The position numbers and the translations under genes were made by a program. 64,000 nucleotides of DNA from Takakia lepidozioides (Eukaryota; Plantae; Bryophyta): NCBI GenBank assembly GCA_030704615.1, contig CM060732.1, positions 50,096,001 through 50,160,000 on the forward strand. The letters are read 5' to 3'. This document shows, piece after piece, positions 20,891 to 58,294 of the stretch; positions within the stretch are counted from its first letter, which is position 1, and each line of letters opens with the position of its first letter. Below the pieces are notes generated by a model, which did not search any database, was not told where the DNA came from, and saw only the letters and a list, made by a program, of their open reading frames with translations.

Positions 20891-21436
20891 CGTCGCCTTG
20901 GAACACAATGTCTTCGAACCAATGTATTCTCCTACTACCACTGAGCGATATGCACATGCTTGGCCGTTCCACTCATACTCACTGCAATGACAATGCCCAG
21001 CTCTAACCACTCTTGCGTCACTTACGACCGATGCCCAACGAACACACACACAACCACGGTAGAGAGAGAGCAGGGATTACGAACTACTCTCAATCAAACA
21101 AGCTACAGAAAAAAAATCAATACAGCGCCAGTGCATGTCAGACACTTCACATGATAAAGCATTTGAATGTTAGAAAGGAAGAGATATAGAAACGTTCCAC
21201 TCACATTCACTGCAATGAGAATGATCAACGGAAGCTCTTCTCTTCTCTTGTCTGTCGGTGGAGAGCAGCAGCCTTCAGAGAGACGAAGGACTCTTCTCTC
21301 TGCAATCAATAATGCCGCCCTCCGCAGCTCCGACGGACATCGACGGACATCGACAGAGCTCATTAATTGAAGACGCCGTCGCTCGTTTCGACGGAAAAGT
21401 GAAGTACCGACTACCGACGGGCGGCTCAAAAGTTTC

Positions 21437-21750
21437 AAACAACACAAACACGTGTTTACTTTGGATGAGTTGGGGATGGATGTAGATTTCTGTCATAGGA
21501 TGAGTTCTGTCATCCCCAAACAACGCAAACACGTGTTTACTTTGGATGAATTGGGGATGGATGTGGAATTCTGTTAGAGAATGAGTTCTGTCATCCCCAA
21601 ACAACGCAAACACGTTACTTTGGATGATTGGGGGATGGATGTGGACTTCTGTCACAGGATGAGTTCTGTCATCTCCAAACAACGCAAACACGTGTTTTCC
21701 TTGGATGATTTGGGGATGGATGTGGGATCTGTCAGAGGATGATTGCTGTC
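21437..21750. repeat. Tandem repeat, ~4 units of 78-81 bp
   Basis: Units start aaacaac(a/g)caaacacgt at about 21437, 21518, 21599 and 21677. Three carry CACGTG and the units carry an internal ggggatg…cat(c/ct)cc inverted repeat. Confidence 0.9.
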
Positions 21751-22499
21751 GATGGGATGGCTTATGGAAGGGTTACGTCTATGAGTCGGTATTTGTTCAT
21801 CTTCAGTATATTCTTCGGTATTATTCCCTCGTCTCCTTCCTCGGCTGATATTGCTTCTTGCATCCTCGTGCACCTTTGCTTCGAGAGATGACCGAGCTGT
21901 TCTCATGCAAAACGTTCCCCGCATAATCGTGGACAAGTCTCTTCACAATCACACGGTTTTACCAACTTAATTCAGATCCTAGCTGCATAGCCTTGTCGAG
22001 ATCTTCAAGCGGCGGTCCATAGTCGCGCCCAACTTGTTCTTGGCGAGTCCCGCCAGTCGCAAATCGTCAAAGGGGTTACTGGATGCTAGTTCGTCTACTT
22101 TCTGCAAATCGGTGAAAGACCCCTTGTACTAGAGTCACTCAAGCAGGACTTGGTGGATCCTAACAAGAGCAAAGTTTCAGCATTATCTGGTTGGAGGTGG
22201 TGTGCAGGGTTTTCGAAGTAGCTGCCAAGGGCGGCTTCTTCGTCTTCCAATGGAGAGCAAATCTTTGCCTGCCTCTGCAAACATTCACTGTTGGTTGATT
22301 GGCTTCTTTGCTGTAAATCTGTTGTACTCCGGCGTCTACTCGACATCTGCTCCTCGCGCTTTTTTTTTCCAGAACATATTCGCTTTGTTGTGGTCACTCT
22401 AACCCTAGGTGCCTACATAAATTGCGTGAATCTGTATCTGCGGTCTAGGACCTACGAATTACCAATATAGATCTTGAGCAATAACAGAGTTTCCCATTG

Positions 22500-26545: not shown

Positions 26546-29180
26546 ATGGCCACCGAAGTCGAGTCCCAGAAGCCCAGGGGGGAGGAAGTAGATTTCGTGC
26601 ATCAGAAGATGGAGAAAATCGCCAAGGAAACCCAGGAGAAGCTAGGTGGACCGGAGGACAGCTCGGTTATTGCAGCGCAGATTGTGGTGCCATCCGAACT
26701 CGGCAAGGAAAATGAGAAGGTGAGTTCCTGCGTGCTCGAATTTTTTTTTAGTGTCAAGGAGAGCGAAGGAAGTTTAGCAAAGAGAAGAGAGAGAGACTCT
26801 CAGACAGTCTCATGGCGCTTGCTTGGAATTTTAGAGCTATTGTTTGACCAGCGATCAATCTTGATCTTCTGATGTAGTAGTTTGAATCACAATGTCTGTA
26901 CACAGCGACTTTGATCTTGCTCATGAGTAGAACGCACTGATGTTTTCAAGGGAGTACCGTAATCTCACATATTCCCGTTGTCATCGCAGAAGATCAAGTC
27001 TCTGGAGATCGAGAATGCGAGGCTCAAATCCAGCTTGAAGGATTGCGAGGAAGCGCTAAGTATGGCGAACAACGAAACGGAGAAGTCCAACCAAGTGGCC
27101 CGCGACGCTAAGGCGAAGATTGCGGATCTTGAGAAGGCGCTTGACGAGCTGAGGACAGAGGTACAAGAAGCTGGGGCGAAGGCAGCATCTCTGGAGCTGA
27201 AACTGAAGGAGGCTGATGAGAGATGTTCGGATGCTGAATCCAAAATCAAGGAGATTGAGGGTAAGACGCGATTTGTCGCGCAGAACAACGACGCTCTTGC
27301 GGAGGATCTGCAGAACACACAAACCGGGTTGCAAGATCGGGAAGTAAAACTGGCAAATCTGGGTGATGCAGTCGCTGCTAGAGATGCAAAAATCAAGGAG
27401 AAGGAAGGATTGGTTGGCGATCTTTCTCAAAAGGTACTTTTTTATGCATCGTATTACGTAATTTAGCAGGATATTTCATTGATCATAACAGCCTCATAAC
27501 TGTCCTTCTCGTTCTCAAAAGGTACTTTTTTATGCATCGTATTACGTAATTTAGCAGGATATTTCATTGATCATAACAGCCTCATAACTGTCCTTCTCGT
27601 TCCAAGATCGTTCAGCATGTAGTGCATGTTGACTTAGTCTAAATCAAATACATCATCTACAAAGATTTTCGTAACATATTCAATTTCCTGGACTCTCTTA
27701 CTCGACATTTCAGGCACAGAGCTTTGAGTCTCGAGCTATTCCAGCGGAGCAGAAGGCGTCACAGTTGGGCGGACTTAAAGGAAATCTCGAGGAGAGGGCT
27801 GCTGGGGCAGAAAAGAAGCTTGCCAACGTGGGGCAGGCCAAACAACAAGGGGAAGCAACCATAGCTGATTACGAGGAGGAGCTGAGGGATGCTGAAGCCC
27901 GCGCAAATAAGCTGGAGGCAGCTCTTAGGGCCGAGCAAGAAAAGACAGCTACTCTTGCAAGTGAAGTAGATGAGCTGAAGAAACAAACCCAGCAAGATTC
28001 CGGCCATGCGAGAGTGTTGGCTGAAAAAATTGCGGAATTGGACAGTGTACTCTCTGCTACGAAAGACGAGGGGGATAACACTAAAAGAAATTTGGAAGGG
28101 GAAAAACAGAATCTCGAACAAGTGAAGGAGGCGGAAGGCGAGGGGAAGAGTGCGGCTGAGAGAAAGACATACGAGCTTGGTAATGAAAAGAGTGGGTTGT
28201 TGTCCTCTATTGGTGATTTGAAGACAAGAATGTTGGGTGCATTTTCTAAGGCCGATGAGAAGGAAGCTGATGCGCAGGCCACTCGTGCGGAAGCTGAAGC
28301 CGCAGCTGGAAAGGCGACGAATTTGGAAGGTGTGCTAGGTTCGCAGTCGGACAAGGTACATGATTTAGAACAAACTGAGAAGGGTTTATCAAGTGAATTG
28401 GAAGCCGCCAAGGCGAAGGCCCAGGCAGGAGAGAGAGCCGCTACGGAATTGCAAGACAAAGAGGCAAAGCTTGGAGAGATGGATGCTGATTTGAAGTCAT
28501 CAGGAGAGAAGCTTGCAGATCTGGGGACAAAGCTCAAAAACTTACGACTGGAGCGTGATGAAGCCCAAAAATCTGCTGCTGACAAAGACGGCAGGTACGG
28601 GTTCCAGTTGAGAAAAGTTATTTCCTTTGAATTTCTGACTAACAAATGTGACGCAGTCCCACCACCCTCTCTTATTACTCCTGTTGTGAGACAGTACCTC
28701 TTCAAATCCGACTGAGGGAATTTCACAAACTTTCCAGAGCTACAAGAAAAGTGTCTGACATATTTATGATATTCACAATCAGTTATTCTCCCTAAAACAT
28801 AGAAATGAAAAGCTCATTGAACTGAGTAGAACTATGATGAAGTAACTGTACATGAGAGAAAAATGGCAGCGACGCTTATTTGGCGTGTTGAATTTATTTT
28901 CATCTTGAGCAGGGTGAAGCAGCTGGAGGAGAAAATTGCTGATCTCGAGAAGGAAGTGCAACGCCTCCGGGAGCGAGAGGTAGAACTGGAAAATCAACTC
29001 AAGTCTGTAGGTGGAAAGGTGGACCGGCATACAGCAGCCGTCCGAGGTCACCAAGATGAGACTGTGGCGAAAGCTCAGAAAGCTGCAGCCCTGCAGGAGG
29101 AGGTGAAGGAAAATGAAGAGCATATCCAAGCTAAAGAAGAAGAATTCGTGGAGAGTGTCACCGAACCAGTGCAATCCTAG
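26546..29180 (+). CDS. Long coiled-coil protein of unknown function (~590 aa); exons 26546-26719, 26990-27433, 27714-28594, 28913-29180
   Basis: E/K/A/L-rich heptad ORFs joined by phase-compatible GT-AG introns (0, 0, 2), with a NAGNAG acceptor at exon 2. No catalytic motif recognised. Confidence 0.8.
27424..27599 (+). repeat. Perfect 88-bp tandem duplication spanning a 5' splice site
   Basis: ttctcaaaaggtactttttt…tgtccttctcg occurs at 27424-27511 and 27512-27599. Confidence 0.95.
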
Positions 29181-31319: not shown

Positions 31320-32630
<1,311 letters not shown>

Positions 32631-33884
32631 TCTCTCTCCTTAGCAGTCACACTGGCTGTTGTCTCTCTAGTACGAAGGTAGGCCAACACTGTTGCATCTT
32701 CATGCATATCCTTAGCACCACCAAGCTCCTCACTGATCTCCGGATCGTCATGCACACCATCTACATGACCAATGCTATGGGATGGACCAGCTTGAGCTCT
32801 CATTGCTAGGATGCACAAAAAGGCAGATACATGTCATCCTGGCACCATCTCCTCATCCGTCTCACCATGCCACCGAGCTCCAGTATCATCATGCTCGCTC
32901 GTGCATGGATTACGACTCAATCCATCTGCATCCCGATTGACAATACCGGCTCGATGCACCATCTGAAAGTCGTATTCTTAAAGCATAAGTGCCCACCGTG
33001 CAAACTTCCCTGTAAGCTTGTCTGACTCCATCAATCACTTCAATGGTTGGTGATCCGTGACAAGGGTGAAGAGATTGCCATAGAGGTAGCATCTGAAATG
33101 TGCCACTGCCCATACCGCAACTAGACACTCCCATTCATAGGATTTATACTTCACCTCGGCATCATTGTTTGAGCGGCTAGCATATGCCACTACGAACTCT
33201 CTTCCCTCATCATCCATCTGTGTGAGCGCTGCTCCAATCCCGAGCTGTAGAATAATAGGAATTTCTGACTTAATGACAACTTTCAGAAATTTTTAATATC
33301 TTTCTAGCCTGCGATACCTTCGATATTGTTGCGATAGGGCAATGTTCTTCGATATCTTGTATACAGTCGATAGTCTATCTTGGACTGAATGATAGAAGAG
33401 ATGGATGAAAAATTGTAAATGATGGATGAAGGAGTTTTTGAGCGGTTATTACAGTTATTGAAATACTCTGCTATATAAAGCGTTAATGAGAAGCAGAAAG
33501 TGTCAATTGAGCCAGAGAGCCGTGACCGGGAGTAGAGAGAGTAGAGTGAGTAGGAGGTAGATTATAGAGTTATTCTGCAATGGTAGATTTAGTACTGCGT
33601 TCTTGCAGTGTTGTGATTTATGAATGAGAAGAAGAAAACAAAAGAAGTGTCATTCACTTTGTGTTTTCGTGTGTAAGAACTGAAGAACCATATGAGATGA
33701 TGAGAATGCGCATAAATGAAACAGATAAGAATTCGATGTGAGGATTAGTTCTGGTCCATCAAGAGGAATATCGATAGAGAGATATTCAAAGCTCAAGAAG
33801 GAGCCGATTAAGGAAAAGAAGACAGAGAGAGGGTTTTCAATTGGATTCATGATAGGAGTGAAACAGTGAATTAAAATCATTTGC

Positions 33885-34193
33885 ATGGTGGAGAGCAATA
33901 GTGAAGGAATAAAGGAAGTGTCAGAATTGATTTCTGGATTACCAGATCATTTATCGATAACAATCTTTCAGAAACTTTGTTATAGTGATAAAGAAGTATT
34001 CTTATTGCAATTGGTCAATAAAGGATGGCATAGGGAGATATCCATTCTATACCGGAGTTGTTATTGGAAGCATAGTTGGTTGCAGAAGTGGTATAGACCA
34101 TTTGAAGGCTATCCTGAACTTATGATAGAATGGAATCATAACTTTGGTGAGGGAAAATCCGTGGAACGACTTGAGAAACAGAATTGGTGGTGA
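33885..34193 (+). CDS. F-box-domain-only protein 1 (102 aa)
   Basis: LISGLPDHLSITIFQKL…LLQLVNKGW matches the F-box pattern L-x-x-G-L-P-D-x-L…I…L…V-x-K-x-W. Confidence 0.55.
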   Translation: MVESNSEGIKEVSELISGLPDHLSITIFQKLCYSDKEVFLLQLVNKGWHREISILYRSCYWKHSWLQKWYRPFEGYPELMIEWNHNFGEGKSVERLEKQNWW

Positions 34194-34209
34194 AGAATGA
34201 TCACTAGCG

Positions 34210-34407
34210 ATGTGTGAAGGAGAACAGATAGTATATCCTGTAGAATTGATTACTGGACTGCCTCATAGTTTGTCTCTAGATATCTTTAAAAGATTACAAT
34301 GCAGCGACAGGGAGATAATCAATCTATGGTTAGTTAATAGAGAATGGTATCGAGAGCTGTTGACTTTGTATCAGAGAGATTATTGGAGGAAGAATATAGT
34401 GGAGTAA
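34210..34407 (+). CDS. F-box-domain-only protein 2 (65 aa), paralog of the preceding ORF
   Basis: ELITGLPHSLSLDIFKRL…LWLVNREW…LY…YW aligns residue by residue with ORF 33885. Confidence 0.55.
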   Translation: MCEGEQIVYPVELITGLPHSLSLDIFKRLQCSDREIINLWLVNREWYRELLTLYQRDYWRKNIVE

Positions 34408-36180
34408 TGGTATTTGATTTCAGCCGATGGAGCAGAGTTAATAGAAGATAGAGAGAATATTCATGAATCTGGAATAATGATGATCGTGTTAGATGAAGAT
34501 GACTGTTGGTAGAAGTTGTTTCAAAGAAGGGATAGAGAGAGATAGAATAGTCTGGCATCATTATGTATTAGTCGTATAGTGCTTTCCCCAGTGAACGAAC
34601 CTTAGAACTAATTAATCCTCTTTTAGGATTGATTCTAGTTTTATTCTACACCAGCATACTCCAATCCGTATGTAGCTGGAAAGGCCGCCCCCGAATAGGT
34701 CGCCTTAGAATAGGTGCAAAAGTCAATCGAGCCTTGAGTTGCTCAAAGGCTTCCTCCTGCTCCTCCTCCCACTGCCACTCCTGACCCACCTTGGTCAACT
34801 TAGTAAGAGCCTTTGCAATGCTGCTAAATCCCTTGACAAACCATCGATAGTAGTTTGCCAACCCATGAAAGTACGAACTCTGCTAAAATCTATGGGGCGT
34901 GGAATGCGTGCAATGGCCTCCACCTTCGTCTTTTGAACACCCAATCATCCAGGGTATATCATGTGGCCCAGATACTCAATCTGGTTGTGGAAGAACTTGC
35001 ACTTCCCAAGGTGCAATTTCAACCCATGCGCTCTCAAGCGCTCAAACATCATCTGAAGGTGTCTCTCATGCTCCTCAACCGTAGCACTAAAGACGATGAT
35101 GTCATCAATGTAACACGGGGCAAAGTCTAGCCCCGCGAGAATCCTATCCATAACCCTCTGAAACTTTGCAGGAGCATTCTTCAACCCAAATGGTAGGAAG
35201 CGCCATTGGTACAAACAATCATTTTCATGTTGATCAATCCCCCAGAATGTCGTCTTTTGCTTGTCAGCCTCTTTGATTGGCAACTGGTGGTAACCGGATC
35301 GCAAGTCCAATGTGCTAAATACCTTCGCATGCCCAATGGCATCAAAGATTTCCTCTGGAGTTGGCATGGCATATCTATCGGACTTAGTCTGACGGTTCAC
35401 AGGACGATAATCCCCACACATCCTTCTTTCTGTCCAATTGCCATAGATATCCTTCTTAGCTGGCATCACCGTTGCCGAGGCATACTCCCCGCCTGACAAC
35501 TCCACCAATCCAGCTTCGAACAACTCCATAGTCCGTGACTGGATCAATGACCTCTCCATGTCACTATACCGGTAGGGCCTTCGAAAGATTAGCGTGTCAC
35601 TTGCCAAATCAATACGAATCTCTTGACCCTTCAAATTCCCCAAATTCTTCAAACCGAAGGCAAAACAATTTCTATAAGCCCTTAGAAATCGCTGGATCCT
35701 CCGTCTCTCTCCTCCGGTGACTGTAGGTCCAACATCTGGTTCCCAATTGTCCTCAGTGACTACAACCTTGGGTACATCAGGCTTGGATGTAGGAGACGAA
35801 TCCTTTGGTTGCTAGATAGCAACCTCTTGGGCCTTGTCCGCCCAATCTGACTGTGGCGTAGCCTCCACTTGCTCTGCCATAACCACCTTGAGAACATCCT
35901 CTGGGGAAGAAACATTCTTAACCTCTTCAAAAACATTCTCAACCTCTTCAAAAACATTGGCCACCTTGGCCTCCAACTGATCCTCAGTGTATGGCTCTCC
36001 CCACTCTTCATACTGCTGCTTGAGAGATCCAAGGACTCTCTCTTTCCGCATCTCATCCCACATCTGCCATGGGTGTTTGCACCCCATGATCCTGTGCTTG
36101 CCCCCACTCACTGCCTCAACCGTCCCGGTTGGCAGAGGGGATACAATACCAAATGGGAGTGCAGAAGTAGCCACCACTGT

Positions 36181-37150
36181 CTACAACCTCTGTTGCTCAG
36201 CCATGCACACACCAATGACCCATGTCAAGCAATTTAGATCCATTGCTTGACCCAACACATGTCGGCGTGATGCCTCTGACAGAGCTGGCACAGCTGTAGT
36301 GCCCGTGGCAAATCCCATTGCCCGCTCTCGCTCATCTGCATTGGGCTCCACCAATTGCTGTAGCACACTCCAGGACCATTGTCTCAAAAAACATGAGACG
36401 AGGGAAAGCTCATGAGCGTAGGCAAGGCCGCACGTGGCTGCCCCACTCAATTTACCACTGCTAGAGGTGGACGGTCATCATGTCGCACCCTCTGTGGTTG
36501 CCTCTCTTGGTCCAAAATTCCCTCAACTATGAGATTGGGTGGCCGTTGAATGGAATTGTATGCTCTCTTGAGCAGCTCTGGTGGTGCAAGATTGATCCAC
36601 CACAATCGAGGTCGATGTGCTCATGATCCCACCGCTGCTGCATCCAATAGCACTGTCGATCCAATCCAAGACCGCACCTGATGCACACTGGCCATAACCC
36701 TGGCCCGAGAGTCCCCTATAAGAGGAACATTCTCCAAGATATAGGCTAGAGGTTGCACTTGCCTCGTCTGCAAGTCACGCAACACTCTCAATATCTCCCA
36801 AAACAAATGCGATCATGCATCATGCAAGTCGTTCCCATGACCTGCGGGAGAGTGTCCTTGGCAATGCCATCCAGCTATCACCAAGTCAATGGCACCATGC
36901 CGGTCCAAATCATCTGGCCCCAGCAAGGTAATGTCTGTTGGCAAGGCCTTTTTGATACCCTTGAATTGCTGAGAGAGGCAACAACTCAAGATACCGGTGT
37001 GTGAGCAAGACGATGTGGCGCATAGAAATACGCCGAGCTATCTCATCCTTCTCCACATACAAGTACTTGCGTACTTTAATCCCAGCTTGCAACACTCCTG
37101 CAAGCCCAGTGCTCATGCCTCCAAACAAGTCTAGCAAACAAATCCCTGAG
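36181..37150 (-). pseudogene. DNMT3-like DNA (cytosine-5) methyltransferase domain inside pol
   Basis: Motif I LLDLFGGMSTG; II YLYVEKD; III TDIT; IV IDLVIAGWHCQGHS (PCQ altered to HCQ); V D-x-*-SHLFWE; VI YILENV; VIII AHRPRLWW; IX ERERAMGF; X RRHVLGQAMD. One +1 frameshift in an A-run and further frameshifts and stops. Confidence 0.9.
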
Positions 37151-37529
37151 TCAGGTGGTTGCCAGGTAATGGGCACTGTATCCAAAGGAGCTAACTGAGG
37201 AGGTCCAGGTGATGTCACTGAACTCCCCTCACTCACCAATGGATAGGCCTCATGCCATGCTTGGTGCACATATTCGCCTACTACTCGATGCAAATTCCTA
37301 ACTATACCCCACAGTGGAATATGAACAGACACATGAGGAAGCAAATCAGCCTTGTATGCCAATTGTTTGTCCTCATCAGGTGGGGGCCTATCATCTGCAT
37401 GGCTATTGCCCTCCAAGAGCTCACCACCCCAAGCCACCACCCCTGAGAATGCAGCCAATGTGGCATCATGTTCCTATGATCCACCACTACATTCCCAATA
37501 AACCACACTAGGAACAGTGCACGTCGACC

Positions 37530-37900
37530 ATCCCCTGACTGCCATTCCGGCCTATAGGATGTCGTTTCCTCCCAAAAGTCCAAAGTAAAGCCCATTGGGT
37601 ATAACACAGCCCCACCAACAAGCACATCATAAGACATCGCGTCCGTAACAATGGCTTTAGCTCTCATGACAGAGCCATCTGTAGGATGATCTTGCTGCAA
37701 TCGAATGAAGAGCTCATGGCGTGTAATCCCTCGTGTCTTCTCTAAACCGCCCAAAGATGTTTGAATTTGGAAAGGACAAGGCTCCAAATCCGCCTCTGTA
37801 AGGCCCAAGCCTGCAATTGCTGCTCTCCCCAACATCAATGGTTGTGCTCCCGAGTCCAACAAGACCCGCAGTGGCCTATACCTCCTCCCGGCTGGGCCAC
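37530..37900 (-). pseudogene. Retroviral-type aspartic protease
   Basis: LRVLLDSGAQPLMLG…YDVLVG. Confidence 0.85.
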
Positions 37901-38699
37901 CCAACTGAAACACACCATCATGATTGTCCACCAGGACTACCCCGTGAGTCACCATACTACGCTCAATGGCTGGTCTAGCTGGCAACTTCTGCAACCTTGC
38001 AGCTGCCATTTGCCATGGCACAACTATGGTTGTTTTCACCCTTGAATCCAAGGCATCCATGCAATGCACCTGATCCGCTATCCCCGCAGATAGTGCCGAT
38101 GCATCACCATTCTCATAGAGTCTAGCTGTCAGTCTAAACACTGCAGCTGGCCGCATCCCCGGCATTGCAATTGTCGTGGCAGAAAACAATGGAGCTTGGC
38201 AAATTGCCGTAACCGCCCCCAATAATGTACTGGCTGCACCTTGCTTTGCAGTACCACCCACTGGCATTTCCCGAGCCGCGCATACCAACTCTCCCCAATG
38301 ACACTCGTGGCTTTACTTCTGACACACTTGGGCGAGCGGGTGCCATCGATGGCATAGTTGGCACTGTCTCAGCCAATGTGAAAGACTGTGGAAGCCTTGT
38401 CTGCCGACTTGCTTCCCATCTTTGTGGATCAAAATCCACATCCACTCCTCTTGGCTCAGGAACACGCGTTGCTGCTCGAGTGACTGCAGCTGCAGAGTCC
38501 ACATGTAATGGTCTTGCAAGTGCGGCTCCACACATGAAGCCCATACCAATCTGGTCTTCCCTAGGCATAGGAGGTTGTGCAGGTGGGGCTTGAACCTCAA
38601 GCCTTGGAGCTGGGGCAACGTGAGTAGTGGCCATGGCAGCAAGACGTTGCTCTAGCTGGGCAAGTCTATCCACCATGCCTTGGTCATGACCTTGACCTT

Positions 38700-39598
38700 G
38701 ACCCTGTGCTCCTTGGTTTTGGTTATGTTCTCCATCCCGACCTCTGCCTCCTCTACCTCTCTGGACTACATTGCCTCGTCCTCGGCCACCATTGTTCCCT
38801 TGGAACTGGCCTGGCCGTAGCTCAGGATGCAAGTCATAACAATGGGCCTCTTCATGCCCATACTTGCCACAATGCCCACATTGTAGTTGTGTAGGTTGTG
38901 CCTGTGCCGGCCCTTTGCCTCTTTCCAGACAATCTTTCTTAACATGGGGTCCTCCACAATCCCGACATGTCACACCCGACTGTTGTTGGCCTGAGAATGA
39001 AGGAAGTGACCTCTGCAATTGAGATCCTCTCGGCCCTTCCCCGGGCTTTGCCTGAACCCCCTTGTTGCCTTGAGCACATTGGGGTAGTGGTTGTTGTGGC
39101 TAGGAGCCCCACCTCGTTGTGTCTCCTGACCAAACCCCACCATGACCACTCGCTCCTCCACCATATTGAGCTCTATCCGCTCTGCCAGCAAAAACACATT
39201 TGCTAAGGTGGGTTGGTCCACTTGTAGGAGAGTTGCGTCCCGCACCCTTCTCCTCAACTCCTTGTCCAGGATCCCATACCAGAACTGGACTGCCTGAGCT
39301 TCTGTAACCCCTTGGGTTACGTTTATCAAGCGTCTCATGCGAGTGTAAGCCTCCCTCAAACTCTCGACAGGCTTTTGTTGGAACTCTTGCAAACTCCGCA
39401 ATTTCTCCGTCCTTATCCAGGAAAGGGGGGGGGTTTGCGACGCCGCGACGTCGTAAAACAACCCTTTTCGGGCAGGGGGAAAACCCAAATTTGCGACGCC
39501 CGGGCGTCACCAAAAAAATGTCGCAAATTTGCGACCAATGGGGTCGCAAATAGGCGAAACCGCGATTTGCGACGCCGGACGTCGGAAATAAATTTTAT

Positions 39599-39635
<37 letters not shown>

Positions 39636-41161
39636 ACTCTGCAATGCAGAATTAGCACTGTCCGGGGCTCGCAAAGTGCGATGCCCGGACGTCACAATTT
39701 AAGGGGGTACATTTGAATTTAGGCAGGAAAATTTGAATTTGAAATTTGAATTTCAAAAACTTGTTGACCATTGACTCCGGTTCTCTCTAATGACGATATG
39801 TTCATTGTTCTATAAACATCATGCAATGCGATGCATACTTGAACCTAAGACCTCCACGTTATAACTTTTCTAGGACATTACAAACTAACCAACACACCTA
39901 TGCTACATCTATGTATCACAAAAGCAATCTAAATATATATATACACATATAAAGAAGTCCTTCAAGAGCCTTCAAGTTCCTTCTAAGGGGGTCTCTCTTG
40001 TGACGCCGGGGAGTTACAACCTCCACAGCCTTAGTGCCCAGCTCTAGCCCCAGCCCCAGCCCCAGCATCGTCGCCGTTGTTGCACCCCCCCCACTGCCAG
40101 ACGCCCTAAGCGACGTCCTTGTGATGACCTAAGCTAACCACAACACCATTGCGACCCCTGTGGCAACGCCATTGCGACCCCCTGGCGTCGCAACGTTGGG
40201 CGTCCTAGCGCGAGGCGCCCCCAGCGACGCTTTTGTGAAGTTGAGGGCCGCAAAGTCTATAATTTTTTTTAAATTAAAAAAAAAAAAACTCTCACTATGG
40301 TGATGCTGTTGCGACGCCCTGGCGTCGCAGAGGCACTGGGGCGCCCTTAGTGACGCCGAGGCGTCGCAACGTCCAAAAAATTAAAAAAAATTAAAAAAAA
40401 AAAAAATCTGACGCCGGGGCGTCGCAAGAAAAAAAAAACCGTCGAAACGAGGGCCCTCTTTCCCCCTTCATGCCACCTTACGACGTCTGGGCGTCGTAAT
40501 GGTGTCGCAGCGGGTGATTTCGACGCCGGGGCGTCGCAAACAAATGCCGCGGGCTCGGCGTCGCACGGGGCATGGGGGCACGGCTAGCGTCGCAAACCCC
40601 CCCCCATTTGCTGTAGTGCTGGTAGTTTCTCTTTAACTCCTCGAAAAACTCCACAACTGGGTTAAAGGCAGGCACGGGTGTTGGTGCTGCAACAGGAGCT
40701 TGGGTGGACTTCCCAGCTCCTGTTCCACTTGACGTCCCACTGCTACTTGCAGAAGCTGCCAGTGTAGCTACCGGTGTCACCACTGCCCTTGTGCCTCTAG
40801 TGATGGAGACATAGTCAGGTGACCAATACACCCGTCATTCCTCAATCTCCACCTCATGTCCTCGCCTAAACTCATGGTAGTCATCCATGGACGGCCCCTC
40901 AAGGTGCTGAAACAACCCCTTCCACGCCATAAAAGGTGTAAACAGTTGTGGATTGCGCATCTGCTACAAATCACACCAACTATCAAACTCCTGTATGAAA
41001 TCATCAAGCTCGATGGTGCCCACAGCTCCAGAGTACCGACGTGGCCTCTTGGTAGCTCCATACATTTCCTCCATCGTATCCCACAACAATGGCACGGAAA
41101 TGGCTTGCACCCTCGGCGAGAATCCTCCTAACTCTGAGTCTGAACCTTCCTCAGAAGACAC
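38700..41161 (-). pseudogene. gag with two Zn-knuckle motifs (split by the CACTA insertion)
   Basis: MSSEEG…RYSG…LDDFIQEF…LKRNYQ|GIRTEKLRSLQEFQQKPVESLREAYTRMRRL…, CRDCGGPHVKKDC, CGHCGKYGHEEAHC. Confidence 0.85.
39418..40618. mobile_element. Non-autonomous CACTA (En/Spm) DNA transposon inserted in gag
   Basis: Right end …tttgctgtagtg (CACTACAGCAAA on the minus strand). Left end caggaaaggggggggtttgcgacg is the matching, clipped TIR. Dense subterminal cgacgcc/ggcgtcg motifs at both ends; no transposase. Confidence 0.8.
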
Positions 41162-43907: not shown

Positions 43908-46787
43908 TGTGGATTTGAAGCTAGGCATTGAAGATAGGCAACAACATACTGAGCTCCCTGGTGATCTGCAGATTGGATGTCGCAGCCCTTTGCCTTGAGG
44001 GCAGGGGGTCGGGACACAAGAGGAGCTGCCCCTATGGTGGGGGCAGTGGCAACAATAGGTACGGGGGCTGAAGCACCCTTGAGTGCCCAAGGCTTTCAAG
44101 GAGGCGGAGGCGCTCACTAGGTGGAGCCCCGCACACCGGGTTGCGGTGGGGGTGGTTCCACGAGGGGTGGTGGTAGCTTAGTGGGTCTTAGTGGGGGTGG
44201 CATAGTACTCACCATGGGGTAGAAACCTTGTGGTGGGAGTCGTGGGGAGTCTTGGGACTCATCACGGTCCAATGGGGCCGTGGTGGGTGGGCCAAGACTC
44301 ACCGTGACTCATCACCGGGAGTCAAGAGTCTTCGTGGTGGTTCGCCATAAAATGACTGGGTTGTTTGTGAAACCCCCGCGGACAGTCACAGAAGTATATA
44401 TAGGGAGTAGTAACCCCGAGAACGGTGCAAGCCCGTTGGTGACCCAAAACTAGTGAGTAAGCGTGCGAGCCGGAAAGCGACCAAGGTGTGGGGAGCTGCT
44501 CCGGACTGCCAACAACCAAAGGGAATTTCCACTAGGCCTGAATTGAGCGAGGGTCTTGTGGAGGAGTAAAGGGGGACCGTTATGTCCCGGTGAGCAGCTG
44601 AAGCTCCGAGTTGGCCCAGCGGCCAGTTTGGGAGTTAGGCGCGCGCATCAAAACGAGTAATTATGACTTGAAGGGGAGCTTACCGAAATGAGGTGCGCGA
44701 CACTTGGTATCAGAGCTTAGAATTGAGTACGCGATCGTCCTTGAGATCGGCCTCATCATGGGGTCGGGCAAGACAAAGCGAAAACGGAACGGCCCGAAAG
44801 ATGATGATCCTGGTGAGCCCGGCGAGGGCGACGTGTCACCGAAGCGGTAATTGGAAGAGGCGATTCATGCTTCTAAAAGTGAGGCCACTCAAGAACAGGA
44901 GGAATTTTGGGAATTGGAGCCCGAGGACTTCCCGGAGGCTCCGCCAGACCAACAGATGCCTCCCATGCCAACAGCCTTTTGGGAAGGGCTGTTGGCGCAG
45001 TTTGGCGGGACATTAAAAGACATGTTGAGGGTGGCTAATGCCACTTCCACTAAAGCAAAGTTTAAGGTGAAGCCTAAGGAACCCGGCACCTTCGAGGGCG
45101 TCCGAAATCGGAAAGCACTCAACACTTGGCTCTTGGAGCTGGAGCAGTACTTCCGGGCGGCCAAGTTGAGTGACGAGGATCGGGTGGAAGTGGCTCCCAC
45201 CTATTTGAGGGGCTATGCTCAACAATGGTGACAGAAACGCCTTCATGACCAAGGTCCAAACCCAGAAACCTTGAGCTGGAGTGGGTTCAAGGAACTTATG
45301 AAAAGATAGTTTGTGCCTCTCAATGCGTCTTGGCTCGCCCGTGACAAGATGAGGAATTTGAAGCAAACGGATGACATTCGGGGATATGTTCAGGCTTTCA
45401 ATGTGCTGTTGCTCGAAGTCATGGATATGGCAGAACTAGAAATGGTCTTCAACTTTGTGGTGGGACTGGCCCCATGGGCCAGGCGGAAGTTGGAGGAGAA
45501 GCCACCTAAGACTTTGAACGAGGCAATTGAAAGGGCTGAATGTTTCTCGGATATCCCTAGGGGTGAAATGACGGCTTATGGCAGACAGAAGACAATCTTC
45601 GATGGAATGTGCTTTAATTGCGGGGAGCCCGGGCACATGGCCAAGAAGTGCACAAAACCTCGACAATTGAACATGACTCGGGCGACCGCGGAGCTGTCCG
45701 AAGATTCCATCAGCCGCTTGGTGGAGGCGATAGTCGCCAAGACTTGCAAGGTAGGCAACTACTCTTGTGAGTTGTATCAGGAGACTGGTCCCTTACGTAA
45801 AGGGAGTTAGTTAATGTTCGTGAGTGGGATAATTTCCGGAACTAACGTGTCGTTGTTGGTGGACACGGGAGTGTCGCACTCCTTCATGACACCGGCAACG
45901 GCACGGAAGCTGGGGCTCCTGACAAGTGATGTGGGGGCCTCTATTGAAGTGCGTTCTGCCAAAGGAGAACCACAACTTGCGATGAGGTTGGCGTTCGATG
46001 TTCCTCTTCAGCTAGGAAGTTGGGAGGGACATGAGAACTTCACCATTTGCGAGATCGATGGAGTGGATCTCATTTTGGGGATGACCTTTTTAAGCAAATC
46101 CGGAGCGGTCATAGATGGCCGCAAGAGAGTAGTCACGCTACCGTGTGGGGATAGTGGTGAAGTTTTACGGGTGTCGGAAACTCCCAACCGAGTGGGATGG
46201 CGAGTAAACCTGCTCACAGCAAAGGAGTGGATCGTGGAGGAGCCACACGAACCCCAGTTTTTGTTGTACGTAAGACAAGTGGAAGGAGAAGTTGATAAGG
46301 AGCTGAGCCCAGATTGGATCAAGGGGATCCTGGAGAAATACCAGGATGTGATGCCGGAGGATTTACCAAGCGGCTTGCCAGTGCGAATAGGAGATGACCA
46401 CAAAATTGAGGTGATACCGGGATCGGAGCCGCCTGCCAAGGCGCCCTACCGGTTGAGCCACAAAGAGTTGGTCGAGCTGAAGGCTCAGCTCAAGGATCTA
46501 ATGTTAGAGGGGTACATCCGGCCGAGTAAGTCACCTTACGGAGCCCCGGTGATATTCGCAGACAAGAAGGATGAGACGTTGCGGATGTGTGTCGATTACA
46601 GGGCTCTGAACAAGGTAACTATAAAAAACCGGTACCCTTTGCCAAGGATCGACGACCTCTTCGATCGGTTGGCAGGAACAAAGTATTTCAACCGGATCGA
46701 TTTGCGTTCAGGCTACCATCAAATCCGAGTGGCGGAAGGAGATGAGGAGAAGACCGCGTGTAAGACAAGATATGGTTCATATGAGTT
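43908..46787 (+). mobile_element. 5' part of a Ty3/Gypsy (chromovirus-type) retrotransposon: LTR, PBS and gag-pol truncated in RT
   Basis: LTR end …GCGCGACA at 44702. gag ATG at 44758, [49 protein letters not shown], then abrupt truncation. In-frame stops; LTR start approximate. Confidence 0.85.
44705..44716 (+). promoter_or_regulatory. Primer-binding site (tRNA-iMet)
   Basis: TGGTATCAGAGC, 2 nt after the LTR-terminal CA. Confidence 0.92.
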
Positions 46788-48377
46788 TGTCAAGTTATTT
46801 TACCACTAGTGTGAAGTTAGCTAAGAAATAATTAGCTTGTATATATTGACATTTGGGATTGACCCAAGTGTCAATCCAGGGGCCAATACATGTTTGGGCA
46901 CCTGACGTTGTTATCTTCATGGCAGATCGCGGTGGGCTCATCTTTCTCGAGTTGAGCCTCACCGTGACTAGCTATGGCGTCGTAGTATGGTTTCCCCATG
47001 GCGTGGGGTGCACTTGGCTCGACTTAATATATGAGTGATATTTTTATGTGCAAGTATGTGAGTTTGAGAGAGCTTATATGCTTGTATCATTCCTTTCTTT
47101 ATCACTCGAGAAAGATCAGCTCGAGTCTATGAGTGCCAGGTTCGAGTTAATTGTAGCACTTATGTTTTCAGATCATGAGAAGCGGTTCAGCCTAGAGTGC
47201 AGGGATTCGTGCATGAGCCTATCCAAAGCGAATAGAGTGCAAAGGCAAGCAGGTTGCAGGTTTGCAATGGATAGAGAAGCGGATAGCCTATGTTGAAGGG
47301 CGGTCAGTGTTGCATAGCTCAACGCTATGACAACTGAGTATGCGGTTCTGTGTGAAGCGGAGGAGATGTTGGCCACGAGTGGGCGAACTGTGGTCATCTT
47401 CTTCAGCTGCAGGCCAAGCTGAGGAGCTGCAGAAATATGGGCTACGCATGGGAAGCTAGCATGTTGCAGGTTGGAGATGATATGATCAGCTCTAGGTATT
47501 TCTGCCTGAAACTAGTTGTTGGGGGTAGATGAGGAGCAGCCGAATGGTGGAGCTGCGAGGGGATGCATCGCAGTCCGTTGGGAGCTTCAGCTCCAAACTC
47601 ATGAAGAGGTATGAGTGAAGAGAGGGGGCAGGTCCCTCTTGTGTGCAAATCAGTGCACTTGTGAAACATGTGTTGAGTTGGAGTTTCAATCTGAAACTCA
47701 GCAGTGTAAGGGCTCTTGGAGTGTCAAGAGCGGGGAAGGAAGGGCAGCAACGAGGTGCCCTAGAGCCAAGGGATATGCATGAGAAGTGCAGGTGCACCAA
47801 GTTTGTAAAGGTGTGTATTTTCAGATTCGTTTTAGTGAGCTTCATGAAGAAATGGAGCTTGTTGGGCAACATATTGCTTGCTTGTTGAGTTTAGGGTGCT
47901 TCTAGTGGGCCATGAGAGCTCAGGAGTGCAGGGCGACCGGGCTGATGGCTCCGCAGAAGCCATAGCTCAACGGCAACAGGTGCAGGAGCAAACCCCAGCT
48001 CGGGGAGAGCTCGGGAATGCGGGGGAACGCCTGGGAACGCCTTGAGAACGCATGGGAACTCGTTGGGAGTTCCAGGGCACGCAGGGAACAGTGGCCGTGA
48101 TGGGCCGTGGGGGTGGTATCACAAGATACCACGAGCCCAGGCCGTGACTGTTGACCGTGACCGTTGACCGTGACTGTTGGAAACCGTGGTGCGAACACAA
48201 CGGGTGGGCACGGTGACCAGATCGTGGGGATGGCGGCCGTGAAGGCTCGTGGGAGTGGTACCACGGGGTATCATGGGGCAGCCCGTGGCCAACGAACGCT
48301 TAGGGCGGGCCGTGAGGAGTCGTGGCGGTTGGAGCCATGGAAGGCCGCGAACAGCCAGAGTGGAAAAATAAAATAAA

Positions 48378-49441: not shown

Positions 49442-52400
49442 CTATGTGCTTTTATCCCGCTGCATAAGTGTATTCACCTCGTTGAAACTCATGGTGGCCT
49501 GGTGAATGAAGATGTCGGGTTTGGGATCACAAATCATTCTGTTCAAGAAGATAAAATAAAGATGTTTGCAGGGTACAAATTTGCCTCTCTTTCCCAAACT
49601 TGTTGAAAGCATGCCAACAAAATCAGGACAGGTGCAGTTGGGGAAATTTGAAACTGTGATGTCATAGAATCTGTCATGGATAGCAGATGTAGAGGTCATC
49701 ATAGTGTAGATCCGACCATACCCGGGATCTGCAACTTCCGTAGTGCCTACAACACGTCCTAGAAGCATTCGAGCGGATTCCACCTTGCCGAAGTGCTCGG
49801 CAGTTGGAGGGAAACGACGTACTACCTTCCTATTTCTTTTTGTTGGCCATGCATCTGGGTTGGCTGGTGGCACTCTAGAACTTCCTGAAGTGGAAGCACT
49901 TGCACGCACAGAGGCTTCTCGCTGAAGGGAGAACCCTGCCTCCTCCAACATTGCAATCTCCTAACTTGTGAGATGTGTCCCCACCTTGACTGGCCAAACG
50001 GTCGGTGGAGGAGGCTTCATGACCACTGATGGTCGCACGGTCCCATGCACGCACCTACCACAGTTGTCAGCGCAGACCCAGAATTTATGGTTTTTCGCCT
50101 CTGGCTGCCCATAAGGTTGGAACAAACCGTTGAAGGTCGGTGCTGGAGTGCAGGCACTGCCTCTGGATATGAAGGACTTGCACTTCTCACGATTGGTGGC
50201 TCTGATTGCGGAGCACTTCACTCGAGACCCAGCTCTCGTGCGTTCTATATGCCACACTTCATCGGAGCAGGTGGACTCCACCACATGCGAGAGCAAGTTC
50301 GATTCATTGAGAGTAGGAGATGTTGGCGTACTTTGTGAGAAACGTTGCTCCGCACTGGATATTCCAGAGACGAACCTCTCATGTAATGGAACACGCGGAA
50401 TGGAGAAGTTGTCCTTGTCCGCCCTGTACGAGTCTGCATCCGACCCAGGAGGGGTGTTCAATTTCCGTTTACAGGACCCGAATCTCTCCTTGCCCTCCAG
50501 ATGAGGAATTCTGGACACTAGAGGAGTTCCCTCCGCACACATGCTGACAGCTCTGGCAATCTTGTTTGGATCCCCCGATCTTTTTGCAGCTCACAACATC
50601 AACTCAGACTTGTCAGGGCCTTTGCCACCAATGCCACCCCTCAAGAAATCGCGATATCTCGTTTGTTGCTGCAGAGCTCGGATGAGATCATCTGCCGTCG
50701 CCAGATACAAATCCCGTCCCCGCTTTCCAGACTGCTGCAACCATGCATTGTGCACTGTTTCCGCTCGATTGCAAGAGGGCATGTCCGCCATCTACTCAAT
50801 TGACAAGTGCTGCAGAAAAGGGAAAACACACATCAGGACAGACAGGTACACCCCATGACAACAGACATGATTGGAAATGCATACAAAGCCAATGAGAATA
50901 CATGATCTGAAATTCAGGTACCGTTGTCATGCATGCTCCCCATTGTCTGTACCGGAAGTGCCAAAATGCTAGCCAGTCTTCCAGCGCTCTTATACTGTCT
51001 TCTGATACAGCCCCAGATGAGAACCACCAAGCACGAATCGACTGGAACAAAGTATTCGCCTCCACCATGCTTTTGGCATCTTTGTACTGTTTGCATAGTT
51101 TAGGATGAATCGCCCGCATGTCCGGTCTGATGTCTGCCTTGGTATGTTTCTCAAGGGACTGCGTCCAATGGAAAAGACATGTTCGCTCTCTTCCTGGCAT
51201 TGGCACTTTTGGATCTCCTGAGCCGAACACAATGCGAATAGCATTGAAATTCGCTTGAGCACTGTCGGCCATAAAACCAGCGAAATTTGGGGATGGGACA
51301 CCATGGGATGCCATCGCGCGAATGAGACATCTCCACATAAGCTGCTGCGACTCCGCATCCTTCGATTGCATGTCACACACTGCAATAGACATGACTCGCT
51401 GGTAGAAAGGATCGTAAACATGGCACACCATTGTTGTCCAGTCTTTCACTTGTTTGACGTGATCAAACATAAGGAAACAATTCTGCAGATCGCCATCTTT
51501 TTGCATGTGCTTGACAAGGCTTACTCCGCTGCCCTCCCCTTGTGTTGACATTTTGAAATTGTACACTTTGTTGGATCCTTGACCTGGGAACACGCTGTCT
51601 TGGATGTAGTCGTACATGCTCCGAGATTTCAATTCCAAAATGTTATCAATATACCCTCTGTTTGCAGAGCCCATCCTCAATGCATTCACCTGGTTTCTAA
51701 TGTTCGGTGAGCTCAAGGTTGAGAAGTGATCCATAACATTGTCCAAGGCATGCCCGTCCAGCTTCCTGCCCACAGAGTCCCCTACACTCAGAATATGGCT
51801 TTCCAGGAAACTCTTGCTTGCTCCAAGCACAATTGCGGAGGTGGTGGCTGTTGGATTGCTCTCATACTCCTGTCTTATCAACTTGGACACTGTTTGAACA
51901 CTCTCCCTGCAATCCCCCTTCGCCACAAGATGGTTGTGGAATCCGAAATGTACACAGGCTCTAGTCATGTTTTTCAAACGGTGAACAACATAGTACTTGC
52001 GTGCTGCACACATTGCAAACGAAAGTGTTGGAATTTGGAGGTGCCTCACCGGGTTTGAATGGATTTTTGGCGACACCCTCCCACTCGCACTGGTTGTGAA
52101 CCTTGAACCGTTGGAAATGCCTACAATTCAAATTCTCGCACATGAGGTGCCCATTGCACAGCCTTCTTCGGAAGACGAGGTTGTCATGATTTTGAATATT
52201 GGATGTCTTCGTTCTGCACCACGGGTGTCCATCTCCTCTCTTGTCCATTCCCTGCATGAGGCTAGTGACGGGTCCATCCTGCCCAGGTGGAGGTAGCTCG
52301 AAGACGACATCCCCATCATAAGCATTCGGCAGGAACTCCACACACTCAATAGGGACTGTGTCCCAATCAATCCCCCGCAATTCACTCTAGAAACCGGGCA

Positions 52401-55087: not shown

Positions 55088-56450
55088 ACCATGGCGTCCC
55101 ATGGTAAAGAACCAAACCCCCACTTGACTCAACTCTCCACTAGCTAGTTCGGCCGACTTTCTCCAAGTCCCGGCCAAGGGTGGAGCCTCTCAAGCTCCAC
55201 CCAGTGCACTCTTCTTGGCCCACTTCAAGGCCAAGGAACGATCCTCCCCGAGGATCGAATCGCCTTACTGCAACAACATTGCTTGCGACCGCTCATGATG
55301 CCGCTTTTGGCATCACCTTGAGCAAAAGTTCACCTTGAACCATTTTTTACTAGGAAGATAACCTTGAACCAACCGCGCGCCCCAATCACTACAATTGGGT
55401 CCACCTTGGAATGTTGGCCTGAGGTACGGGAACACCGCGAAACCGCACTACGACTTCGTCCCGAGGTTACACGATTATAGTACGTGAACGGAAGCACGTA
55501 GCTTCCGCGTTAATCCACACTACAAGACAACCCCTCGGTAGCGCAGTTATAATACGCGCATGCACCATGTGCGCACTAGCACGTGAACTCCCAAAGAAGG
55601 CGCAAGTTTCTTTGCACCTTAGATGGGAGTCACCCGATTTTGGCACTGCGCAAACACACAATTAATCCAATTTACCTCTTCCACTTTTGTAAGCTAGCAT
55701 GCATTCTACACACTAGCCAACCATACCATGCATCACCATTCCAAACAAAATATGAAGTACAACATTTGGAAACCATTTCATTTATAAACAAAATTTGTGC
55801 AACACAAGTTTTTGCAATCGGATTCCTGAGCTAGCTAAGCCGGACTAAGCATGCATTTCCTCCCCCACGATCCAAGGTTGATGTCCCCATCAACGGTTCT
55901 TCCGCTTTTGAGGTCGCCCTTCGAAAGCTGCAACCGCCTCGGATGCGTTTCCCATTTCTGAGGCATGCACCCAAGTTGCCTCTACTTGATGATAGCCCTT
56001 CCATTTCACGAGATACTCCGTTTCTCGATTCTTGAACCTCCTCGACCTAAGCACTGCCTCCACCTCGTACTCAGGTTCATTTTCATGATCCAACAGCACA
56101 GGTGGTGCATGCAACACTTGATGCCGATTCAGACGCGCTTCATCTTTGAAGTAAGGCTTCGAAAGGGAGACATGGAATACCGGATGCACCTTGTTGTTTG
56201 CCGGCAGCTCCAATTCATACACATCCTCATTCATAACCTTCCGGATGCAAAAGGGCCCCACATACGGAGGTACGAACTTCGGACTCACTTCCGGAGGTAG
56301 TCGAAAATTCTTGATGTTCAACCAGACCTCCGTGCCTACCTCAAACTTAACTTCCCTCCGCTTCCGATTCGCTTGCCGTTCATACCGTTTCCTAGCTTTG
56401 GCAATGTTGTACTTTGCGAGCTCCAACAAACGCTTGCGTTCTTCCAGCAC
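55088..56450 (-). mobile_element. 3' end of a chromoviral Gypsy element: integrase C-terminus, chromodomain, PPT and partial LTR
   Basis: YVGPF…YELELP…VHPVFHVSL, chromodomain YEVEAVL…EYLVKWKGY…ATW, then GGGGGAGGAAA PPT and TG. Confidence 0.88.
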
Positions 56451-58294
56451 CGCTGCTGCTGAAGTTTTAATAGACGAGACTATTGTTGGAGGCTAGGATC
56501 CAATTTGGCGACATATCAACGAGGAGTTTGAATCAAGCATTTGCAAGAGGCTTGTTACACAGGCTTTCTCAGGCAAGATGTTCCATGTCTGGGATGGCAA
56601 CCACCAATTGCTAGCATGGCAGAACATGATATCGAGGTATCATAGCACTGAGGAGGAGTGGCACTATTGTGTGGCCTCCATGGTGCTGGATCCCAAGGGA
56701 AACATCACTGCGCTCTTGACAGCAATGCATGACGTGAACAAGTAAGTGCCTTTCCTGAAATAACTCGGTTCTTTCCCTCATGTGTTTGGGAGTCAAATTG
56801 GACATGTCATGACATACCACTGCTTGTGGCAGGGGAACTAAAACCGCCCATGTTACAACAAACCTGGAACACACCCTGTTCAGGATCCAGAATATTGGCC
56901 AAATGCCCCTCAGCACATTCAAGAGCATCCTCAGTCCAGAAACCTTCGCGAAATGCCAGACCTCCAAAATTTCGGACACATGGTACAAGCTGACAAGGGG
57001 AGCATTCATGGAATACATGTACACGGTTAGTATATCATCACCTAGCACTTCCATATTCTAGTACAATTCAAATTATTCTTCTATTTGATTTTGGATTGGT
57101 TTTTGCAGCAAGAGATAGCGGAGGCTGGGGAGAGGGCCAAAATAGAGTACTACTTCAAAACCCCCGAGGGGATAAGAACATCGAAAGGAGTGGCTGAAGC
57201 AATGAAGTTAAAGATGAATGAGACTCGGAAGAAGATCATGAGCGTGGAGAATGGCAGACCCTGCCTTTGGGCCGCCATTGGCGTCGCCCAACGAGACGTA
57301 AAACACAGACTGACCCTCTATGTAGCCATGGCAAAAATCTTGTCCAACATCTTCATTCTCAGCTTTGTTTAAGAATGCAACAGTTTTGGTGTTGAAAACA
57401 TCTTGACAGTCCAACATGGCAGAGAAAGATGCAAATACGTCCAACTATCACCCACTACTGTATGAACAGAGTACTACAAGAGAGCATTGTAGATAGATGC
57501 AATGTCGTGAAACTGAGAGGAGCTGACAGGAGCGCAGCCCACAAAACCCACAAACCCTATTTCCTCCGCTTTTCAAGGAATGCCACAACCGCGCTTGGAA
57601 AATTCAAATCCATGGATCATGGCATGTCCTATGGCCTAACCAGATGATGACATGGATTATGGCTAAAGCTTCATGGCATGACAACCCAATGACTCACATG
57701 CCCAACACCTATACAGTGCAGATCATGCAGAACATTCCACCATGCATAACGCCATTGTGTAGAACAACCACTTCCTCGTGACCGCGGTTGTGGCGACATG
57801 TGGGGTCCATGGAGCCAAGGGATGGGTTGCCCACCTCACGCGCGAAGACTGTTGACATATGGCAGCGAGCAGAGCTCGTAGGGGTACATATAACGTCCTA
57901 CAGTAAAGGCAAAGGGTATATGCGTGGCGGGTAAATCCTAAGCTTTTGTCCAATTCGCTTGAGCCTTGCTCTAACTCTGCTATAGGTAATCCACTCAACC
58001 ACCTCACTTTTTAGTCGATGGACCCACCGCTCTCCACCCTCCCTTTTAAGTTTAAGCTGGGCCAACCCCCAATCTTTTGTTGCACTTACAAACCAACACC
58101 TCTTGTGGTGCTTCCAAAGTAGCTTCAATTGTGCTCCACCCATGTCCTAAAAATCTTAGTTTTAGGAACGCGAAGTTGGTTTATGTAGGTACGTTACCAC
58201 TGGATTGTTTTATCAATATTCCAAGCATTATTGAATGTATCACTCATATCTCTTGAATATATAATTGAATAAAAAATAGAAATATACTTATTTA

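Follow-up and report, generated by a model that had tools for sequence, protein, structure and literature searches.

A 64,000-nucleotide stretch of the genome of the moss Takakia lepidozioides (GenBank assembly GCA_030704615.1, contig CM060732.1, positions 50,096,001–50,160,000 of the forward strand; the window hereafter, within which all positions are counted) carries at 33246–34650 an insertion with two tandem, paralogous open reading frames (ORFs) of about 100 codons. It is highly probable that the insertion is a solo long terminal repeat (LTR) of a retrotransposon whose ORFs have been under selection, and, with somewhat less assurance, profile and motif comparisons make it probable that the ORF products are true F-box proteins. 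Their predicted role, which we put forward tentatively and at rather less than even confidence, is that of miniature F-box adaptors, encoded by selected paralogous LTR genes, which would bind host SKP1 and steer the SKP1–cullin–F-box (SCF) ubiquitin ligase towards some host factor by which the element is restricted.

The insertion and its identity as an LTR

The insert of 1405 bp lies in a decayed Ty3/gypsy element of the opposite strand and interrupts its RNase H exactly: positions 1–39 of the Pfam domain RT_RNaseH_2 are found on the right flank and positions 39–99 on the left. According to Pfam, the C-terminal part of the reverse transcriptase (RT)–RNase H of the decayed pol occupies 33035–33245 (minus strand), and the RT with the N-terminal part of RNase H 34651–35811 (minus strand). 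Contigs of empty sites from the sequencing runs X1, X3, and X5 skip 1410 bases, that is, 1405 + 5. The split RNase H and these empty-site joints, not the end signals, are the decisive evidence for an insertion. The insert begins with TG and ends with CA, within a perfect 10-bp terminal inverted repeat (TIR; 33246–33255 and 34641–34650), and the 5-mers on either side (33241–33245 and 34651–34655), which together with the empty-site joints mark the two copies of a 5-bp target-site duplication (TSD), are identical in four of five bases, so the duplication is imperfect. A TIR with a near-TSD is by itself weak evidence, because 29 candidates with 8-bp TIRs and a near-TSD occur within the window, this insert among them. 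The GC content of the insert is 0.36 vs. about 0.48–0.50 in the adjoining bins of the host element, and no second copy of the insert is present within the window. The initial annotation of this region, made from the sequence alone, had described a clean 1.4-kb insertion with TG..CA ends, 10-bp TIRs, a TATA box, and a 5-bp TSD; all of this stands but the TSD, which matches in only four of its five bases.

Other copies of the insert were sought in contigs of five DNA runs from two studies, holding 34–44% of the insert's words, four of which (X1, X2, X3, and X5) were tested. At 80% likeness each of the four covers all 30 bins of the insert, and in X5, with short flanks, the 506 contigs fall into every likeness class (56/145/173/132), which points to a diverse multi-copy family. 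Directly behind 34650 these copies continue into a T-rich spacer and a primer-binding site (PBS) motif in X1 (six contigs, agreement 0.55) and in X2, which belongs to the other study (one contig). Contigs of two further runs, X6 and X7, guessed to be RNA, match 34572–34642 (plus strand) only and then run into the same PBS motif; this 3' segment thus appears to be common to related LTR families with the same PBS type. As they leave the ORFs uncovered and derive from related families, these contigs have no bearing on expression. The position of the PBS motif sets the plus orientation of the element and was the ground for rejecting the minus-strand orientation that was also considered, with the ORFs antisense in U3.

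The first 8 nucleotides of the PBS motif equal the Athila tRNA-Asp/Asn PBS of the ATHILAfinder preprint (bioRxiv 10.64898/2026.03.20.713144), the further bases differing in part. Two Athila traits, a 5-bp TSD and an LTR length of 1–2 kb, are found in the insert. In the survey of Neumann et al. 2019 (PMC6317226) 95% of Athila elements have a 5-bp TSD and 72% use tRNA-Asp, which also primes TatII, while the moss lineage Phygy is characterized by a 4-bp TSD and tRNA-Trp. The insert is therefore very likely a solo LTR, in plus orientation, of a multi-copy Ty3/gypsy-type retrotransposon with an Athila-like PBS, and its lineage is placed no further than that.

Two observations weigh against this assignment. 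The loose ends of X5 contigs at 34650 are mixed and lack the PBS motif, and for X3 no such row was listed; furthermore, neither the polypurine tract (PPT) nor the gag-pol region of a parent was seen in the short contigs, whose loose parts were covered to a length of 30 letters. On the PPT side, six loose ends fall at 33246 in X5 (agreement 0.5), and their flanks are mixed. A non-autonomous TGT..ACA DNA transposon or Pack-type element would have a terminal inverted repeat, as the insert has, and would fit its single copy in the window and the unseen interior of a parent. Such an element should not, however, be followed by a PBS motif, which was met here in two independent studies; the TIR is only 10 bp, neither long nor structured, and TG..CA ends with a 5-bp TSD are the norm for LTRs, so that this reading is very improbable. 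Of the two options left by the initial annotation, an LTR and a non-autonomous TGT..ACA element, the PBS motif of the other copies upholds the former and, with the short TIR, speaks against the latter.

From 33309 and from 33660 downstream, subfamilies present in both studies have the LTR in common, and upstream of these points their sequences differ, which suggests an exchange of U3 or leader sequences between families; the related families sharing 34572–34642, present in X6 and X7, likewise have a different upstream LTR. Within one sample, the ORF half of the element (33290–34650) has several times the contig depth of the 5' half in X1, while in X3 and X5 the depth is nearly flat, contig depth being a poor measure. 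An X2 contig, from the independent study, spans the left junction (33198–33460; 48 host bases followed by the element) at about 92% identity, so that either a diverged plant or a paralogous locus carries an insertion at the same site, which may therefore be an old one held in common. A metagenome scan of 84 stretches yielded a single locus, which was rejected as a chance match: the surrounding DNA is prokaryote-like, a stop interrupts the match, and there is no blastn similarity. Among viral contigs, none of 159 stretches was confirmed as related, and none of 45 matches to the LTR-end/PBS pattern (46 loci) was similar to the element by blastn.

Two paralogous ORFs with an F-box-like motif

ORF1 (33885–34193, plus strand) is open and encodes 102 amino acids, with the F-box-like motif in codons 19–48 (33939–34028) and a tail without a known domain. 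ORF2 (34210–34512, plus strand) starts 16 nucleotides after the ORF1 stop and comprises 100 codons with the motif in codons 17–46 (34258–34347); in this copy it is broken by an in-frame stop at 34405–34407. This stop is private to the copy: every covering contig (11 in X1, five in X2, five in X3, and 10 in X5, the full depth in all four runs and both studies) has a sense codon there. When the stop is replaced by X, the two ORFs align without gaps over 89 codons with a score of 152, against 70 for the best of 5000 shuffles, and the 34 codons that follow the stop align with the ORF1 tail over 34 of 34 positions, again gap-free, with a score reached in none of 5000 shuffles. The two tails, of about 50 amino acids each, are of identical length, and no domain was recognized in them. 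The ORFs had originally been described as two open, mutually paralogous, F-box-only frames. Their paralogy and the openness of ORF1 are borne out, but ORF2 is a 100-codon frame with an internal stop, not an open one of 65 amino acids, and its apparent shortness results from that copy-private stop; with a tail of the same length in both, 'F-box-only' no longer applies.

The length of the ORFs is not in itself significant (the probability of a longest ORF of at least 102 amino acids in resampled sequence is 0.06). Their composition is A/G-rich and C-poor like the remaining LTR and unlike the flanks, which suggests long residence in the element and not a recent capture. Homologs were not found in a search with ORF1 of proteins of near length (one candidate, none at E ≤ 0.01), in an alignment of the two ORF products with longer proteins (260 candidates, none of which passed, weak evidence in itself), or among 1.84 billion representatives (none at E ≤ 0.001).

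The F-box signature is LP..L...IF..L...D...V..W near the N-terminus, and this pattern occurs in both ORFs, in the codons given above. In Pfam both products match PF00646 and PF12937 and no other family, with E values from 3e-4 to 4e-3. A profile built from the two sequences found, as the best of five matches in the PDB, the F-box of Cdc4 (E 0.0077, positions 13–91). Among the clusters of the ESM Atlas, an F-box cluster ranks third at 0.94 and another F-box lies at 0.90, unnamed clusters also reaching 0.94, and a family or clan is common to all 10 of the 10 best family-bearing matches; the tail alone found one unnamed cluster at 0.89, which is a lead only. AlphaFold places helices at positions 21–30, 35–45, and 49–57 over the motif, with a predicted local distance difference test (pLDDT) score of about 55–62. 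Taken together, these comparisons make F-box proteins the probable products of the ORFs.

Several of the same results count against this assignment. All Pfam scores, which come from this decayed copy only, are below the curated cut-offs, at 19.2 bits (ORF1) and 17.4 bits (ORF2) vs. 20.5 for PF00646 and at 19.0 and 21.1 vs. 24.3 for PF12937; the profile check proposed in the initial annotation thus gave the two expected families and nothing else, but at sub-threshold scores. The matches in the ESM Atlas share 111–118 of 256 features, below the 170 typical of the same family, and are therefore distant or weak. The Cdc4 match extends to position 91, so that part of the tail may be only the extension helices of an F-box. 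The AlphaFold model is of low confidence overall (pLDDT 48.8, predicted template modeling score 0.31); searches with it were accordingly uninformative, Foldseek giving no match at E ≤ 0.001 and a VIA-wide search a best Z of 4.5 with no F-box among the listed matches. A small helical protein that is functional outside the SCF, for instance as a regulator of element transcription, in Gag turnover, or in particle assembly, its F-box likeness being superficial or repurposed, would agree with the sub-threshold profile scores and the low-confidence fold, as well as with the heterogeneity of the extra ORFs of plant LTR elements, whose function is mostly unknown in the available parts of two surveys (PMC6317226, PMC7264820). 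Three methods, however, each indicate an F-box and no other family, and the columns best conserved between the paralogs are the positions of the F-box signature; we regard such accessory proteins as quite unlikely. A third F-box relic suspected upstream, at 33729–33869, was rejected, as it scored 24–26 and had no Pfam match.

Selection, expression, and a possible role

Between ORF1 and ORF2, compared over 88 codons, the proportion of silent differences (pS) is 0.74 and that of amino-acid-changing differences (pN) 0.40 (Fisher p = 9e-6), the duplication being ancient and the silent sites near saturation; over the first 48 codons the values are 0.78 and 0.29 (p = 2e-6). Paralogs with near-saturated pS, a far lower pN, and a gap-free alignment have evidently evolved as proteins. 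In a neutral simulation at similar divergence, at most one stop was left in one of 3000 runs. Among the listed ORF differences between this copy and its family, 11 of 23 are silent (the stop excluded). Those found at less than 95% of depth are silent in eight of 14 cases (p = 0.002 vs. 0.2 expected), and those nearly fixed, the stop included, in three of 10 (p = 0.32); the latter look neutral, in line with a copy that is falling into decay. In four of 10 amino-acid differences, other copies carry the residue of the paralog in the aligned register. The listed small indels form nine clusters, none of them inside the ORFs (P about 0.006), which make up 44% of the element. By these comparisons purifying selection has maintained the ORFs in the family, and the copy in the window is itself decaying. 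Conservation of the ORFs among copies and purifying selection, the checks suggested by the initial annotation, are thus both seen, in the excess of silent changes, the avoidance of the ORFs by indels, and the excess of pS over pN.

The strength of this conclusion is reduced in four respects. The substitution and indel counts refer to listed rows, biased to the best-supported sites, beyond which lie a further 293 and 166 rows of substitutions and 27 and 11 of indels. In the tail alone, pS is 0.69 and pN 0.53 (p = 0.24), so that purifying selection is not significant there. Minor variants at about 1–3% of local depth in X1, X3, and X5, with joints 34072–34143 and 33888–34174, have lost part or most of ORF1. 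Finally, one X2 contig skips or replaces 34330–34405, that is, 76 bases of ORF2.

Alternatively, the ORFs could be F-box genes taken from the host, or genes that had served an ancestor of the element, and now be passive and decaying. In favor of this reading, the copy is broken, its private differences look neutral, and deletion variants occur; F-box gene fragments are known as captures by transposable elements (PMC13534243), and selection at the level of the paralogs could predate the capture. Against such a passenger, no host donor emerged in the three protein searches, the composition of the ORFs is fully LTR-like, and two intronless genes 16 nucleotides apart are unlike host genes. The differences between extant copies, moreover, are enriched for silent changes, with indels avoiding the ORFs. 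We consider this explanation unlikely, and return to ORFs that are still selected in the family.

The layout of the LTR would allow their expression. The sequence TATATAAA at 33472–33479 (plus strand), 226 bases into the LTR, is the only plus-strand occurrence of this TATA box in the element and presumably its promoter. As the only TATA box lies upstream of them, both ORFs appear to be in R/U5, in sense orientation; transcription would start about 30 nucleotides after the TATA box. The purine-rich leader (33500–33884, plus strand), which tolerates frameshifting indels among the copies, contains 11 short upstream ATG frames (33580–33849). These 11 ATGs between the presumed start (about 33500) and ORF1 are a difficulty for the proposed expression. 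ORF1 could be reached past them by splicing or re-initiation; splicing from a candidate donor at 33546 to a weak acceptor at 33855, both speculative, would remove all 11 frames. ORF2 might be reached by re-initiation across the 16-nucleotide spacer. A full-length element would have inserted here and lost its interior by recombination between its LTRs, and every 5' LTR, 3' LTR, and solo LTR of the family would be a potential expression cassette.

In the proposed mechanism the N-terminal F-box would bind SKP1 and the faster-evolving tail a substrate. The substrate-binding parts of F-box proteins diverge faster than the rest. The two paralogs may be directed at different targets, and by analogy with polerovirus P0 the target could be a silencing or restriction protein. 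The leading idea of the initial annotation was instead that the ORF products are SKP1 decoys, which bind SKP1 without a substrate and titrate or block host SCF to the benefit of the element. It is indeed the F-box half on which selection is concentrated, no known domain was recognized in the tail, and the minor variant with the joint 34072–34143 terminates ORF1 shortly past the F-box. Yet the exact length of the tail and several W/Y/E/G anchors are kept in both paralogs, the loose ends of divergent family members at 34388 and 34445, when read by eye in the ORF2 register, show a tail that is in frame and free of stops, and the titration of an abundant core protein requires high expression. A catalytic adaptor could act at low protein levels, while a decoy would have to titrate SKP1; for this reason an adaptor is favored, and decoys appear quite improbable.

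Genomic surroundings and comparison with known systems

The window is nuclear DNA of a land plant, in which genes interrupted by introns encode a serpin, a DUF2921 protein, and a glycosidase-like protein among decayed gypsy-type elements. The DUF2921 exon is 38–45% identical to its best matches, the best named of which are from a lycophyte, a 'Gb_' entry (likely Ginkgo), Sphagnum, and a fern, angiosperms reaching 29–35%, which points to a seed-free plant as the likely source; an approximately 81-bp tandem repeat lies upstream of this gene, at 21275–21772. A long coiled-coil protein without a Pfam match is encoded at 26963–28715. The host element of the insertion, a decayed Ty3/gypsy element at about 32090–39500 (minus strand), has integrase, RNase H, and RT by Pfam and gag- and protease-like frames without a Pfam match, and its family is present at very high depth in all four runs (X1, X2, X3, and X5). 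Its frame 36910–37473, between the protease-like frame and RT, has no Pfam match at E ≤ 0.001 and contains LLDLFGGMSTGL, which resembles motif I of cytosine methyltransferases. At 39550–40720, GCGACG/CGTCGC repeats and poly-A runs, with CACTAC/GTAGTG-like termini near 40715, possibly represent a CACTA-type non-autonomous element in the gag region of the host. Other relics are a gypsy fragment with gag, protease, and RT at 45310–46809 (plus strand), another with the SH3 and chromodomain integrase end of the chromovirus type at 55890–56492 (minus strand), and fragmented frames at 49442–52127 (minus strand) with a weak SWIM zinc-finger match (E 9e-4), probably a relic of a Mutator- or Zisupton-like DNA transposon.

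LTR retrotransposons with accessory genes are already known; what is unusual here is the place of the genes, in the LTR, and their domain, probably an F-box. Host-manipulating accessory genes that lie in or overlap an LTR are exemplified by sag of mouse mammary tumor virus and nef of human immunodeficiency virus, both within U3 and upstream of the TATA box. The Takakia ORFs resemble these in being accessory genes in a terminal repeat, and differ in lying downstream of the only canonical TATA box.

With the Athila/Tat (non-chromovirus OTA) Ty3/gypsy elements (PMC6317226, PMC7264820, ATHILAfinder preprint) the element shares a 5-bp TSD, an LTR of 1–2 kb, and the start of a tRNA-Asp/Asn-like PBS, as well as a family-wide extra coding capacity and frequent solo LTRs. 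The extra ORFs that are common among Athila/Tat elements, however, are described as internal, mostly between pol and the 3' LTR (PMC7264820), whereas here two paralogs of about 100 codons lie inside the LTR. The available part of the survey of Neumann et al. (PMC6317226) considers only ORFs of at least 250 codons and names no F-box among the domains seen in at least five elements; genes of 100 codons inside LTRs would be missed by surveys of this kind, with their minimum of 250 codons and their treatment of LTRs as non-coding. As with the AlkB demethylase of orchid Gypsy elements (PMC9289625), a retroelement family seems to have fixed a host-like domain with a possible counter-defense role, but AlkB is encoded by an additional ORF of large size. 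In the same study, a screen of 121 angiosperm genomes, the F-box is not named among the acquired domains given in the available text, which does not name all 15. A telomeric transposable element of Drosophila with F-box gene fragments (PMC13534243) is also a retroelement with a host-like domain; there the fragments are of 140–235 bp and are not described, in the part available, as a selected protein. Another link between transposable elements and F-box genes is the capture of transposon domains by host F-box genes (PMC12062965).

In the literature searched, most subscription papers and some supplements being outside its scope, no account of an F-box protein encoded in an LTR was found, and a ubiquitin-based anti-silencing strategy, as the ORFs would suggest, appears not to have been described for LTR elements. 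Most extra ORFs of plant LTR retrotransposons are without a recognizable domain, and neither their role nor the way in which these elements evade silencing is settled; the two ORFs offer a testable biochemical handle on both, through their predicted binding of SKP1 and the pull-down of substrates. Solo LTRs are commonly regarded as scars of deletion; with functional ORFs, they would be scattered cassettes for proteins that act on the proteasome system of the host.

The closest functional parallels are viral. Polerovirus P0 binds SKP1/2 and is linked to the degradation of AGO1, and nanovirus Clink binds SKP1 and RB (PMC3588083). Like these, the ORF products are small, parasite-encoded, and provided with an F-box-like motif in the absence of a WD40 or LRR domain. 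For P0 and Clink, SKP1 binding and targets have been demonstrated (PMC3588083), whereas the Takakia ORFs encode putative F-box proteins only and are LTR-encoded, of about 100 amino acids, and tandem-duplicated, with no sequence relationship to the viral proteins found or tested. By analogy, it is possible, though doubtful, that every copy of the family, solo LTRs included, could express in trans two diversified SCF adaptors destroying a host silencing or restriction factor, and would thus be the transposon counterpart of P0.

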